Assembly (NCBI GenBank): GCA_021811365.1
Contig: JAJZPB010000004.1
Coordinates: forward strand, 1 to 58,872
Length of the DNA stretch: 58,872 nt
Direction of reading: 5' to 3'
Source: a bacterium
GTDB taxonomy: Bacteria; Patescibacteriota; Minisyncoccia; Phycocordibacterales; Phycocordibacteraceae
Positions 19,909 through 22,425 of this stretch are shown here, piece by piece. Numbering within the stretch: the first letter of the stretch is position 1; each line of letters opens with the position of its first letter. A program made the translations under genes and the position numbers. A model generated the notes under the pieces. It had not been told where the DNA came from and did no database searches. It worked only from the letters and a program-made list of their open reading frames with translations.

Positions 19909-21300
19909 TTACACATTTCGAACACCCGCTTTTGAAATTTCCCACACCGCGCCAACTTCGGGTACTATCGCGCGGCCACCAAGGTAGTCGTGAATGCGCT
20001 GTGCAAGGAAGCGTTCGCTTGCGGGCTCGCCAAGACCTACAAAAATCGCTTTGAGCCGCTTGCCCGCAAGCGACTGCTCCGCAAAATCGAGCAGTTCGTC
20101 GCGGTCAGCGTGACCCGACCAGCCTTCGAGGATTTCCACTTTGCCGCGTATGCGCACGTCCTGCCCGCCTAAGCGCACGTGTGAGGCACCTTCGGCCATG
20201 TGCCGGCCCGGCGAGCCTGGCGCCTGGTAGCCAACGATAATGAGCGTTGTAGACGGGTCTGGCAGGTATTGCCGCTCCCACCGCCCTATGCGCCCTCCAT
20301 GGCTCATGCCGGCACCAGCAATAATGATTTTCTGTCCGCGCGCTTTGGCGATTTCGTCGGATTCGGGCCGCGAGAGCGTCTTCGTAAGAAAGGAAAAGTC
20401 AAAAAGGCTTCCCTCCCGTTTCATTTCCTCCTCTGCTACGGGCTTGAAGTAGGTCGAGCCCCATTTGTCATACACGTCGGTGACGTGTATGGCGAGCGGC
20501 GAGTCGAGGTAGACCGGGATATGCGGCAGCTCTCCTGCCGCATAGAAGTTCGACAGTTCGTAGAGCATGAGCTGCGTACGCTCGATCGAAAAGGCAGGTA
20601 TAAGTATCGTTCCGCCCCGTTCTATCGCTTTTTTGAGCGTGTCGCGCAAACGACTGACCCGGTCCTTGTGCGGCGGGTGAAGGCGGTCGCCGTACACGCT
20701 TTCCATTACCATCGCGTCGGCATCCGGCACCGGCTCCCAGTCGGGGAGCAAGGGCGACGGCGCGTTTCCAATATCGCCCGTAAGCGCGACCGCGGTACCG
20801 TCTTCGTCCGTGAGCCGCACGCTCGCCGAGCCCAAGATATGCCCAGTGTTGCGCAGATAGGCAGTCATGCCCGGAGCAACCTCGTGGTCCTTTCGGTACT
20901 CAAGGGTCTCGATGAGCTGGAAGGTCTCCGCGACGTCCTTTTCTTCGTACAGTGGCGACAGGCCGCGACGCTCGGCGTCTTCCGCGAGAATAGTTACTGA
21001 GTCTTTAAGTATAAGCTCCGCAAGGTCTTTGGTCGGCGGCGTCATGAAAAGTTTCCCGCGGAAGCCATCGCGTACGAGCTTCGGAATGCGCCCCACGTGG
21101 TCGAGGTGCGCGTGTGTGAGCACGAGTGCATCGATGCCCGCCGGGTCATACGCAAAAGGACCATACACGTCTTCGGTTGCTACGTCTGCTCCCTGCTCGA
21201 TGCCACAGTCCACAAGCACCTTTGCTTTGCCGCTCTCCACTAGAAAGTTTGAGCCGGTAACCTTGCCAGCCCCGCCATAAAACCCGAGTCGTAGTGCCAT
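19909..21300 (-). CDS. MBL-fold beta-CASP ribonuclease (bacterial CPSF-like)
   Basis: GGAGKVTGS, THAHLDHVGR, GHILGS, ESVYG, PAFSIERTQ, GMSHGGRI, SGHAD. Confidence 0.95.
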   Translation of the reverse strand: MALRLGFYGGAGKVTGSNFLVESGKAKVLVDCGIEQGADVATEDVYGPFAYDPAGIDALVLTHAHLDHVGRIPKLVRDGFRGKLFMTPPTKDLAELILKDSVTILAEDAERRGLSPLYEEKDVAETFQLIETLEYRKDHEVAPGMTAYLRNTGHILGSASVRLTDEDGTAVALTGDIGNAPSPLLPDWEPVPDADAMVMESVYGDRLHPPHKDRVSRLRDTLKKAIERGGTILIPAFSIERTQLMLYELSNFYAAGELPHIPVYLDSPLAIHVTDVYDKWGSTYFKPVAEEEMKREGSLFDFSFLTKTLSRPESDEIAKARGQKIIIAGAGMSHGGRIGRWERQYLPDPSTTLIIVGYQAPGSPGRHMAEGASHVRLGGQDVRIRGKVEILEGWSGHADRDELLDFAEQSLAGKRLKAIFVGLGEPASERFLAQRIHDYLGGRAIVPEVGAVWEISKAGVRNV

Positions 21301-21357
21301 GCAGAAACTGTAGCATGCAGCCTACATGTAAAAACACCTCAGAGCGGCATTTTTTGC

Positions 21358-21500
21358 GCGAAACCACCCCCCTCGGGGGATGGCAACTTTTATTGCCACG
21401 TGGGGCGTGCAACAAGGCTCCTGCGCACAAAAGAGAGCCGCCCTACCAACCTGCCTGCACCCTACAAAGCAGTTACTTGCTCAAAAAAGAAAACGGTCGC
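21358..21500 (-). ncRNA. candidate 6S-like RNA, copy 2 (~143 nt)
   Basis: Shares an identical 32-nt 3' core with copy 1; 5' GUAACU pairs with core AGUUGC, GGGUGCAG with UUGCACGCCC; weak GU-rich closing stem GCGACCG/UGGUUUCGC; TGTAAT 6 nt upstream. Confidence 0.45.
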
Positions 21501-21645
21501 TTGGCGATTACACAAGCTATCCCGACAGGGGTCGTTCTCCGCGTGAAAGTCCAACTTTCATAACGCATACAACCGCGCTTGCGCGCGGTTGTATGCGAGG
21601 AACCGTTCCGGGGTGGCAACTTTTATTGCCACGTGGGGCGTGCAA
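21381..21645. repeat. exact 32-bp direct repeat pair (21381-21412 and 21614-21645)
   Basis: TGGCAACTTTTATTGCCACGTGGGGCGTGCAA occurs twice, 233 bp apart. Confidence 0.95.
21564..21597 (-). terminator. hairpin with GCAA tetraloop immediately 3' of ncRNA copy 1
   Basis: CGCATACAACCGCGC-GCAA-GCGCGGTTGTATGCG on the minus strand. Confidence 0.7.
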
Positions 21646-21743
21646 TGCGTGCCGGTCGATGCTGTTGCCAGCCTCGTTTGAACGCGCTCAATACACGTAT
21701 CCCCTGAAAGAGAGCAAGTTGCGTTTATACGGAACGGCCCCTC
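21597..21743 (-). ncRNA. candidate 6S-like RNA, copy 1 (~147 nt)
   Basis: TTCACG-16-TATAAT promoter directly upstream; 14-bp closing stem GAGGGGCCGUUCCG/CGGAACGGUUCCUC (GU pairs only on the minus strand); rod-like fold with internal bubble; terminator hairpin directly downstream. Confidence 0.65.
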
Positions 21744-21816
21744 CGCCATTATACGCGCGTCTTCGCGCGCGTGAAGCTATACGTGGAAGGTCTGACCTTC
21801 CACAAAGTAGGCGCTG

Positions 21817-22425
21817 CTACTGCTCAAGATAGTCGTCGAGCTCCGGGCTGTAGACGATCGCGTCCTGCATGCGGCGGTACCTGACAATCTCTTCCGGTTT
21901 GAACCAGTGCTTAATTTCCGCTTCAGCTTCGCTCGGCGAGCCTGAGGCGTGAATGAGATTGCGGATAGCGCGGCCGTCTGTGTCCGACATAGGATATGAA
22001 TCAAGCACATAGTCTCCGCGAATCGTGCCGGGGGCGCTCGAAAGCGGCTCGGTGCTACCCACAAGCTTGCGTACGACCTTTACGGCATGCGCGCCTTCCC
22101 AAATCATCGGGACGATCGGGCCGGCAACCATATACCGCTTAAGATTTTCTAGAATTACTGCGGTCACCTCGTATGGATCTTCTGAAGGGGGAGCTGCGCC
22201 CTTCTCCTTGTAGGAGCTAATTGTTTTTTCGCCGGTGATGCGGCGCCACTCGGGATCGAGCGTATAGTGCTTTTCCACATGCTCGGCACTCGTTGTCGTC
22301 ATTTTAATTGCAACGAGTTTGAGACCAACGTTCTCAAAACGCTTCATGATTTCGCCCACCAAGGCGCGCTGGACGCCGTCAGGCTTCACAATAACGAGCG
22401 TTCGTTCAGTTTTCGGATGTGCCAT
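21817..22425 (-). CDS. ndk: nucleoside diphosphate kinase (long form)
   Basis: ERTLVIVKPDGVQR, PGTIRGDY, RNLIHAS catalytic His. Confidence 0.96.
   Translation of the reverse strand: MAHPKTERTLVIVKPDGVQRALVGEIMKRFENVGLKLVAIKMTTTSAEHVEKHYTLDPEWRRITGEKTISSYKEKGAAPPSEDPYEVTAVILENLKRYMVAGPIVPMIWEGAHAVKVVRKLVGSTEPLSSAPGTIRGDYVLDSYPMSDTDGRAIRNLIHASGSPSEAEAEIKHWFKPEEIVRYRRMQDAIVYSPELDDYLEQ

Follow-up and report, generated by a model that had tools for sequence, protein, structure and literature searches.

A probable compact 6S RNA and a degenerate partial copy between ndk and a beta-CASP ribonuclease gene in a Phycocordibacteraceae genome

The locus and the predicted fold of copy 1

What is encoded between ndk and the beta-CASP nuclease gene on contig JAJZPB010000004.1 of the Phycocordibacteraceae assembly GCA_021811365.1? 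The whole stretch analysed, which we call the window, is 58,872 nucleotides (nt) long, and all positions refer to it. Both genes lie on the minus strand, and the intergenic gap that separates them measures 516 nt. An earlier note, made from the sequence alone, had named the two genes, and Pfam bears both names out (NDK for the one; Lactamase_B, Beta-Casp and RMMBL for the other). The same note had placed in the gap two tandem minus-strand RNAs of ~145 nt with an exact 32-nt core in common, and had proposed that they are either two paralogous 6S-like RNAs or a new RNA class. We refer to the unit nearer ndk as copy 1 and to the unit nearer the nuclease gene as copy 2. We consider it probable that copy 1 is the compact 6S RNA of this lineage, ~140 nt long, and that copy 2 is a species-specific, degenerate partial copy.

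The features of copy 1 are as follows.

21748-21775, minus strand: putative promoter of the 6S gene, TTCACG-16-TATAAT, with 10 of 12 consensus matches
21597-21743, minus strand: copy 1, candidate compact 6S RNA, 147 nt; the family-model match covers 21599-21741
21730-21743, minus strand: 5' strand of the 14-bp closing stem, pairing with 21597-21610; inverted repeat I4 and minimum free energy (MFE) structure
21716-21722, minus strand: 5' box GCAACUU, the 5' strand of the bubble-adjacent helix, pairing with AAGUUGC at 21616-21622; chosen by RNAalifold
21635-21704, minus strand: apical (internal) stem-loop, from GGGG to CCCC; MFE structure
21614-21645, minus strand: core of copy 1, the exact 32-mer, comprising the 3' base of the apical stem, the 3' bubble strand (CCCACGUGG) and the 3' strand of the flanking helix
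21613-21632, minus strand: alternative 3' hairpin GUGGCAAU-AAAA-GUUGCCAC, a candidate release hairpin; MFE structure
21564-21597, minus strand: predicted terminator hairpin of copy 1, 15 bp, with a GCAA loop and a weak U tail; inverted repeat I1, 100% complementary

The promoter that had been read ahead of copy 1 stands at 21775-21748 on the minus strand, and it is the only promoter-like site between 21100 and 22000 (shuffle mean 0.3). Copy 1 itself folds far better than expected by chance: its MFE is −65.9 kcal/mol, that of shuffled sequences is −44.1 ± 3.6 kcal/mol (z −6.10), and none of 200 shuffles is as good. The 14-bp closing stem, the GGGG..CGUGUA/UGCACGCCCC helix, the core hairpin and the 15-bp GCAA-loop hairpin that the earlier note had described are all borne out; the terminator rule of the prediction tool does not call the last of these. 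The description of copy 1 as a rod is not confirmed as it stood for the free RNA, for which the predicted MFE structure is the hairpin conformer (−65.9 kcal/mol) and the rod reaches −61.2 kcal/mol with the rod helix enforced. In several orthologues, the rod is the MFE structure. The two conformers exclude each other, for the alternative 3' hairpin and the bubble-flanking helix have a common 3' arm.

The window contains the exact 32-mer twice (21381-21412 and 21614-21645), where 100 shuffles lead one to expect 0.00 matches, and the 32-mer is part of a direct repeat of 36 nt with one mismatch (21377-21412 and 21610-21645, at a spacing of 233 nt). A third copy of the repeat region was not found in the 787,663-base, 32-contig genome. 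Because the 32-mer is absent elsewhere in the genome, being confined to the two sites in the gap, and is present in about one copy per genome in relatives, a dispersed repeat, the outcome that the earlier note had itself set against its proposal, is rejected. The gap, in which the note had seen no credible open reading frame (ORF), is not free of them: ORFs of 150, 94, 89 and 63 amino acids cross it. None of these four has a Pfam family, and the frames over the RNA are inconsistent between orthologues, the antisense open frame being present in 22 of 49 orthologues and absent from 27; a protein-coding reading is thus rejected.

Conservation and kinship with 6S RNA

Homologues were collected by pattern and by covariance model, since BLAST with the whole 451-nt region against 60 relatives returned short core matches only, in two genomes of the genus. 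Both of the loci found by BLAST carry a single element in the same layout, with a closing stem of different sequence. A search for the core pattern in 222 genus genomes, with up to three mismatches, found it in 79, nearly always once; the window's own core, in which the loop is one base shorter, is not counted, and the reversed control was present in five genomes. A family covariance model, R1, was built on a MAFFT alignment of 35 elements. Of 151 genus genomes, 134 contain the RNA according to R1 (104 of the 111 of high quality), one per genome with two exceptions: in G009 there are three copies on separate contigs (this genome has 5% contamination), and in G134 the same place is matched on both strands. 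Match lengths are mostly 134-152 nt, with a few divergent members (117-202 nt). Copy 1 scores 80.1 bits on R1, of which it is itself a seed member. Beyond the genus, R1 was run on 150 other genomes of the order and matched 30 of them, once each and more weakly (21-39 bits).

The layout of the gene is conserved together with the RNA. In 44 of 49 elements, the end of a TATA[ACG]T box lies 19-24 nt ahead of the 5' box, and in 46 of 48 the sequence that follows the RNA has a fold that beats shuffled sequences by more than 8 kcal/mol; promoter box and terminator suggest a stand-alone gene. All 10 full-length homologues at the level of the order have the −10 box, the closing stem, AGGGAG...CACCCACCU and a hairpin right after CCCAC, and the letters of this hairpin's stem differ (e.g., CUAGC/GCUAG).

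We also note two loci of the genus in which the 3' part of the RNA alone remains, directly after ndk (L010 in genome G064 and L011 in genome G065, near position 1500 on the minus strand). What remains is the end of the apical stem, the core hairpin, the 3' closing strand and the terminator, without the 5' box and the 5' half; a search of G064 with R1 gave no match. These loci look like natural loss or truncation of the 6S gene, leaving the same 3' part as in copy 2.

Is the predicted structure supported by covariation? RNAalifold, applied to the 35-sequence MAFFT alignment, paired the 5' box GCAACUU with the AAGUUGC that lies in the core, unprompted. Across these 35 sequences, the closing stem is paired in 97.5% of cells and shows compensatory changes at seven of nine model pairs; the bubble-flanking helix is paired in 99.5% and almost invariant, with one compensatory pair (L051, U-A to C-G); and the alternative core hairpin is paired in 91.3%, with compensatory changes at two of six pairs. 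In the apical stem, the GGG/CCC pairs are invariant and the inner pairs covary. The covariation scores of the rod and of the hairpin structure, each taken whole, are reached by none of 500 shuffles, and slid controls are far lower; these whole-structure scores rest mostly on the closing and apical stems. With a 59-row alignment, the compensatory pairs number nine of nine in the closing stem, five of six in the bubble-flanking helix and five of six in the alternative hairpin. The rows of this alignment are distinct and include one from the reverse strand and ten partly gapped ones from the wider order; the alignment is fitted to the model and leans to the rod, and the alternative hairpin is not part of the model behind it. 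The compensatory changes, together with the order-level hairpins built of different letters, indicate that two mutually exclusive pairings are both maintained. Covariation among homologues, which the earlier note had named as a check, is therefore found in the closing stem, the bubble-flanking helix and the alternative 3' hairpin, and the suggestion that the core can fold on itself is borne out by both the MFE structure and the compensatory changes.

We note, moreover, that an internal-loop motif of the apical stem, (C/U)UGGUGAA...hairpin...AUCCGA, recurs in a large subset of the members (e.g., L046, 1560-1600). It is present in order-level homologues as well, and it aligns to the conserved asymmetric loop within the apical stem of Rfam 6S. 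Copy 1 of the window carries a weaker version, CGAGGCUG-GCAA-CAGCAUCGA.

The Rfam model of 6S RNA, RF00013, has no match in the window at its gathering score of 46.4 bits and none in the region or the genome at E ≤ 10, and neither the region nor the window nor 11 order-level loci gave any Rfam family at a useful E-value; isrK is matched (E 0.081) on account of the two hairpins. In an orthologous locus (L048, 1471-1620, minus strand), the Bacteroides small RNA BTnc231 matches with 30.8 bits against a cut-off of 80.4; this match overlaps the 3' two-thirds of the RNA and the terminator, and is probably driven by the hairpin and terminator. The connection to 6S RNA becomes visible in the genus. 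At E ≤ 1, RF00013 gives matches in 17 of 101 genus genomes, the best with 35.1 bits (E 4.9e-6 per genome), and 16 of these 18 sub-threshold matches coincide with the RNA found by R1. The remaining two lie adjacent to the RNA, on the terminator (G100), and elsewhere (G238:C32). In a control on 14 model genomes, RF00013 gave a signal in seven, one of them an archaeon (Haloferax volcanii), and was above the cut-off in four. The parts of the orthologues that are matched are specific. The family helix GCAACU/AGUUGC aligns to the 6S consensus helix 'GAgCC/GGuUC' on the closing-stem side of the central bubble, GGGAGC...GCACCC aligns to the base of the 6S apical stem, 'GGGagc...gcaCCC', and CCCACCUGG aligns to the 3' bubble strand, 'CCCACCUgg'. 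With RF00013, no other 6S candidate was found in the genome; RNase P RNA and transfer-messenger RNA (tmRNA) were found elsewhere in it, so that the 6S slot is otherwise empty.

How does the RNA compare with 6S RNA of the Escherichia coli type (SsrS, RF00013)? According to the passages of PMC8876501 that bear on this, a 6S RNA is a rod of ~200 nt that opens into a central bubble. When product RNA is synthesised on E. coli-type 6S, the bubble-adjacent helix is unwound there, and its freed 3' strand pairs with the 3' bubble strand in an extended hairpin. Copy 1 and its orthologues resemble this type in that they appear to be stand-alone small RNAs with a closing stem, a bubble-flanking helix, a predicted central bubble and an irregular apical stem; in the 3' bubble strand and the GGGAGC/GCACCC base, which match the Rfam consensus; in the ability of the 3' strand of the flanking helix to form a hairpin of 6-8 bp with the 3' bubble strand, as these passages describe it; and in being encoded by one gene per genome. 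They differ in length (~185-200 nt there, ~140 nt here), in falling under the Rfam cut-off, in that part of the 5' bubble strand can pair, and in that the window's copy is predicted to take the hairpin form already in its ground state. A hairpin of the 3' bubble strand that is already formed in the free RNA, as predicted here, has a counterpart in a studied 6S system. As to length, the same source reports that 6S-1 cut down to the bubble and two short arms still completes the cycle in vitro, which makes a compact natural 6S RNA plausible.

We propose the following mechanism, by analogy with E. coli-type 6S RNA. Copy 1 would be transcribed from its own sigma-70-type promoter and would end at the 15-bp hairpin. 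The RNA would fold into the closing stem, the GCAACUU/AAGUUGC helix, a central bubble (5' strand approximately UGCUCUCUUUCA, 3' strand ACGUGGCAAUAAA) and the irregular apical stem. It may then act as a mimic of an open promoter that binds the housekeeping RNA polymerase holoenzyme. The polymerase would copy the 5' bubble strand and the 5' box, which may thus also be part of the product-RNA template, into a short product RNA, unwinding GCAACUU/AAGUUGC. Finally, the freed 3' strand and the 3' bubble strand could form the hairpin GUGGCAA...UUGCCAC, aiding release of the RNA.

A number of observations weigh against this interpretation. No family member reaches the gathering score of RF00013 (best 35.1 versus 46.4 bits in the 101 genus genomes), and RF00013 finds nothing at E ≤ 0.1 in 11 order-level loci. 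Because RF00013 misses the window's own copy, the link of copy 1 to 6S RNA runs through its orthologues. The RNA, at ~140 nt, is shorter than the ~200 nt given in PMC8876501 and than the ~160-200 nt expected of a 6S RNA, although the truncated 6S-1 shows that such a length is not required for function. The predicted ground state of free copy 1 is the hairpin form, by 4.7 kcal/mol. Covariation in the flanking helix rests on few sequences (one in 35), since the helix is nearly invariant in the genus, and the count from the 59 rows comes from a structure-fitted alignment. The bubble strands are ~12 nt (5') and ~13 nt (3') long if GCAACU/AGUUGC alone pairs; a further pairing, UUGC(U/C)/GGCA, is possible within the rod in 92.8% of cells and would leave a much smaller bubble. 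With regard to copy 2, an exact 32-nt core within otherwise unalignable sequence is unlike simple neutral decay. The loop of this core is one base shorter than in relatives, as it is in copy 1, and an exact core with this shortened loop suggests gene conversion, recent acquisition or selection.

With these points taken into account, copy 1 appears on sequence grounds to be a 6S RNA of the known kind, compact and missed by Rfam. The term '6S-like', which the earlier note had used of it, is supported: its orthologues are the best, albeit sub-threshold, matches to RF00013 in the genus, and both of the competing helices covary.

Copy 2

Copy 2 consists of the following features.

21366-21494, minus strand: copy 2, degenerate partial unit (earlier bounds 21358-21500); R1 match of 17.5 bits
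21381-21412, minus strand: core of copy 2, the exact 32-mer (36 nt with one mismatch at 21377-21412); repeat search

Is copy 2 a second 6S RNA? The earlier note had offered paralogy of the two units as one of its readings. First, copy 2 scores 17.5 bits on R1 (E 0.008 for the window, 0.107 for the genome), where copy 1 reaches 80.1 bits; the score of copy 2 is below every listed match of R1 in the genus (the lowest listed has 28.4 bits); it has no promoter-like site in the scan of 21100-22000, where the site of copy 1 stands alone; and it is unique to one of 222 genus genomes. Two paralogous 6S RNAs in tandem are thus unsupported. Second, with the bounds 21358-21500 the fold of copy 2 has a z of +0.27, and 119 of 200 shuffles fold as well, which is not the equal of copy 1; with the wider bounds 21352-21546, z is −2.42. 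Third, the divergence that had been described as structure-preserving is indistinguishable from chance. Outside the core, copies 1 and 2 are identical at 75 of 143 aligned positions on the 5' side and at 28 of 50 on the 3' side, and when the two are aligned globally, their scores do not rise above those of 1000 shuffles: z is 1.9 over the entire 5' part, −0.3 over the RNA body and 1.8 over the 3' part. A tandem duplication of the whole unit is accordingly not demonstrable.

When copy 2 is aligned to R1, the closing stem is almost all G-U, the 5' box is altered and four apical pairs are broken. Some features of copy 2 are co-linear with copy 1: TGTAAT for TATAAT, CCGUU in the strand of the closing stem, GUAACU for GCAACU, and AGGG at a similar distance. 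Such correspondences point faintly to an old common origin; the core alone is demonstrably common on the sequence. The unique 150 nt of copy 2 have no counterpart in the 221 other genus genomes, where the search returned four chance-level matches of 23-30 nt. No second copy was found in other genus genomes, and copy 2 thus does not qualify as a conserved paralogue. Most likely it represents a decaying duplicate or a recombination scar rather than an independent 6S gene.

The contigs of four DNA runs were also consulted, and none of them spans both copies. In run X1, possibly the source sample, the contigs break at the 32-mer, as expected of a 32-nt repeat, and a contig of 261 nt (21383-21643) with the repeat at both edges fits the two-copy arrangement, of which it is no independent support. 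We note that the depth of this inter-repeat contig is 18.1, against ~25 in the flanks; the extra unit might be polymorphic. In run X2 (record 14; window 21381-21613), a 342-nt contig with a depth of 3.4 joins part of copy 2 to a part like copy 1: after 104 nt that equal the arm and core of copy 2 (0 differences) come 62 nt resembling the 3' end and terminator of copy 1 (5 differences). This contig may represent the 6S allele or arrangement of a related strain, or a walk of the assembler around the repeat.

Could both copies nevertheless be working 6S-type RNAs, copy 2 being a minimal one that is produced by read-through from the promoter of copy 1 and excised by a ribonuclease, and its different 5' bubble strand giving it a product RNA or a sigma preference of its own? 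We regard this as unlikely. An identical 32-nt core despite an unalignable remainder would be consistent with selection acting on the 3' bubble strand; a GUAACU/AGUUGC helix and a GGG..UGCA/UGCA..CCC pairing are still possible in copy 2; its wider fold reaches a z of −2.4; and the terminator of copy 1, with its weak U tail, escapes the terminator rule. There is precedent, too. Passages of PMC7726162 describe ssrSA-ssrSB (6S-1/6S-2) of the Bacillus cereus group as co-transcribed from one promoter, ssrSB being without its own, and the truncated 6S-1 that works in vitro (PMC8876501, in the passages cited above) shows what a bubble with two short arms can do. As in ssrSA-ssrSB, the two units here lie head to tail and the second lacks a promoter of its own. 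In the Bacillus pair as described there, however, the units are full-length, conserved in the group and co-transcribed, whereas here the second is degenerate and known from one species, and a strong hairpin stands between the two. On the other side of the balance, the score of 17.5 bits lies under all listed orthologues of the genus, the fold within the earlier bounds is no better than that of shuffled sequence, the otherwise invariant 5' box is altered and the closing stem is mostly G-U, and a promoter-like site is missing. By a rough estimate, a 6-nt complement allowing G-U is about a coin-flip in 100 nt. Elsewhere in the genus there is one core match per genome, and the unique part of copy 2 is absent from 221 genomes.

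A more specific and still more doubtful version of this idea is that copy 2 is a natural 'mini-6S', a second RNA that binds RNA polymerase and has retained no more than the 3' bubble strand and two short helices beside it. It would be made by read-through from copy 1 and trimmed by the linked CPSF73-type beta-CASP enzyme, and its differing 5' bubble strand would template a different product RNA, while selection for recognition by the polymerase would keep its core identical. If true, it would mean that ultra-small bacteria pair a compact 6S RNA with a dedicated beta-CASP enzyme for its processing or turnover.

Other identities of the RNA, known systems and meaning

We return to copy 1 and to its probable identity as a compact 6S RNA. 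Improbable, and less likely than a working second copy, is that the RNA belongs to a new class of structured RNA that only resembles 6S RNA, such as a protein-binding RNA with the conserved 5' box and 3' core as its binding site and a function tied to the neighbouring beta-CASP ribonuclease. Such a class would account for the failure of any member to reach the Rfam cut-off for 6S, for the short length of ~140 nt, for a 5' box and core that hardly vary in the genus, an uncommon degree of constancy for 6S bubbles across wider groups, and for the order ndk - RNA - beta-CASP, a linkage kept in 9 of 11 order-level loci. Against it, chance cannot account for 16 of 18 sub-threshold 6S matches falling on one ~140-nt RNA when the genomes measure ~700 kb; what is matched is specifically the bubble-side helices and the 3' strand, the architecture and the exclusive pair of helices are as described for E. 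coli-type 6S RNA, and the genome offers no other 6S candidate. Given the matches to the 6S model and the covarying pair of rod and hairpin, the new RNA class that the earlier note had offered as its alternative is not needed.

The genes and sites that flank the two copies are as follows.

21817-22425, minus strand: ndk, nucleoside diphosphate kinase, upstream of the RNA; Pfam NDK, E 2.5e-39
21783-21803, minus strand: 10-bp hairpin directly after ndk, likely its terminator; inverted repeat I5, 100% complementary
21307-21315, minus strand: TGCTACAGT, an extended −10-like box 6 nt before the beta-CASP ATG; read from the sequence
19909-21300, minus strand: gene for a CPSF73/TTHA0252-type beta-CASP ribonuclease, downstream; Pfam Beta-Casp, Lactamase_B and RMMBL

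The best solved relative of the nuclease is the ribonuclease TTHA0252 (E 4e-73), and no NCBIfam model matches it above cut-off. Of 48 genus loci with a full element, 45 have ndk upstream and 45 have the beta-CASP gene downstream, each on the same strand as the RNA, and 42 have both; most of the exceptions are loci cut by contig ends. Among the 11 order-level loci, the nuclease gene is downstream in the nine already mentioned and ndk is upstream in seven. The earlier note had suggested that the nuclease may process the RNA; the linkage of RNA and beta-CASP gene, which persists across families of the order, shows nothing by itself of such a functional tie. Because it has its own −10-like box 6 nt from the ATG, the beta-CASP gene probably has a promoter of its own and a separate, leaderless mRNA.

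Three further observations concern the region downstream of the RNA. In many orthologous loci, the downstream genes start 6-9 nt after an extended −10 box resembling TGCTA(C/A)AGT, which suggests leaderless mRNAs. The distance from core to nuclease gene falls into two classes in the genus, ~85-135 nt and ~430 nt, and the 314 nt of the window form a third state that results from the extra 233-nt unit. In L003, which is of the long class, the extra stretch seems by eye to hold a small gene on the same strand, possibly for a membrane protein.

Very improbable is that the RNA is a cis-acting leader of the beta-CASP gene, that is, a riboswitch or attenuator, possibly a tandem one, or that it is the dispersed or mobile repeat already dealt with above. 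Promoter, structured RNA, hairpin and gene do follow each other on one strand, and two tandem units recall tandem riboswitches. The box before the ATG of the downstream gene speaks against a leader, however, as do the strong terminator after the RNA in 46 of 48 loci and the ~340 nt that about half of the genus loci have in addition between RNA and gene, a stretch that in L003 seems to be occupied by the small gene just mentioned.

Finally, the identity that we reject most firmly, with next to no likelihood left to it, is that of the missing RNA (4.5S) of the signal recognition particle (SRP): the SRP models miss the RNA, the 6S model matches its family, and neither an Ffh nor an SRP54 partner was found. 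The idea has some appeal in that the RNA is single-copy and nearly universal in the genus and in that the small and large bacterial SRP models of Rfam (RF00169 and RF01854) find nothing in the genome, the small one also nothing in 101 genus genomes. The Ffh M domain, however, was found neither in the genome nor in the 61 genomes of the genus and the 81 of the phylum that were searched, the last zero (0/81) being one that could partly reflect the search's first-look filter; the SRP54 GTPase domain was not found in the genome, and 81 genomes of the order gave only short P-loop matches; and a six-frame motif scan for an SRP-type GTPase found none. Domain IV of SRP RNA is conserved, unlike the apical part of the present RNA, which varies in both sequence and loop. 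The absence of SRP is supported as real for Parcubacteria by passages of Nelson and Stegen 2015 (PMC4508563), according to which neither ffh nor ffs is detected in any Parcubacteria genome, a statement that applies here if the present genome belongs to that group.

Two further systems invite comparison with the probable 6S RNA and its neighbourhood. According to passages of PMC10578484, RNase J1, a beta-CASP nuclease, both matures and degrades 6S RNAs in Bacillus subtilis. The neighbouring nuclease here differs from it in being of the CPSF73/TTHA0252 type and not an RNase J.

Ms1 RNA of actinobacteria is described in PMC9130861 as a 6S-like rod that standard 6S models miss, which is a likeness. 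It differs in that it binds the core of RNA polymerase and is much longer than the present RNA; nothing here points to Ms1.

6S RNA is a global regulator of transcription that is often assumed to be dispensable in reduced genomes. If copy 1 is what we propose, a lineage with genomes of 0.5-1 Mb, apparently lacking SRP, keeps a single, strongly conserved and shortened 6S gene, which standard Rfam annotation at the cut-off overlooks. A limited literature search found no paper that joins 6S RNA with the candidate phyla radiation or Saccharibacteria, and the one paper in which both '6S RNA' and Patescibacteria occur uses '6S RNA' for SRP RNA. The tandem remnant, copy 2, gains more than minor interest only if it is expressed. 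Across an order, covariation appears to preserve the design of the putative release hairpin. With the family alignment and model, these uncultured bacteria could be included in 6S annotation, and the natural form of ~140 nt may serve as a ready-made minimal 6S RNA for mechanistic work.

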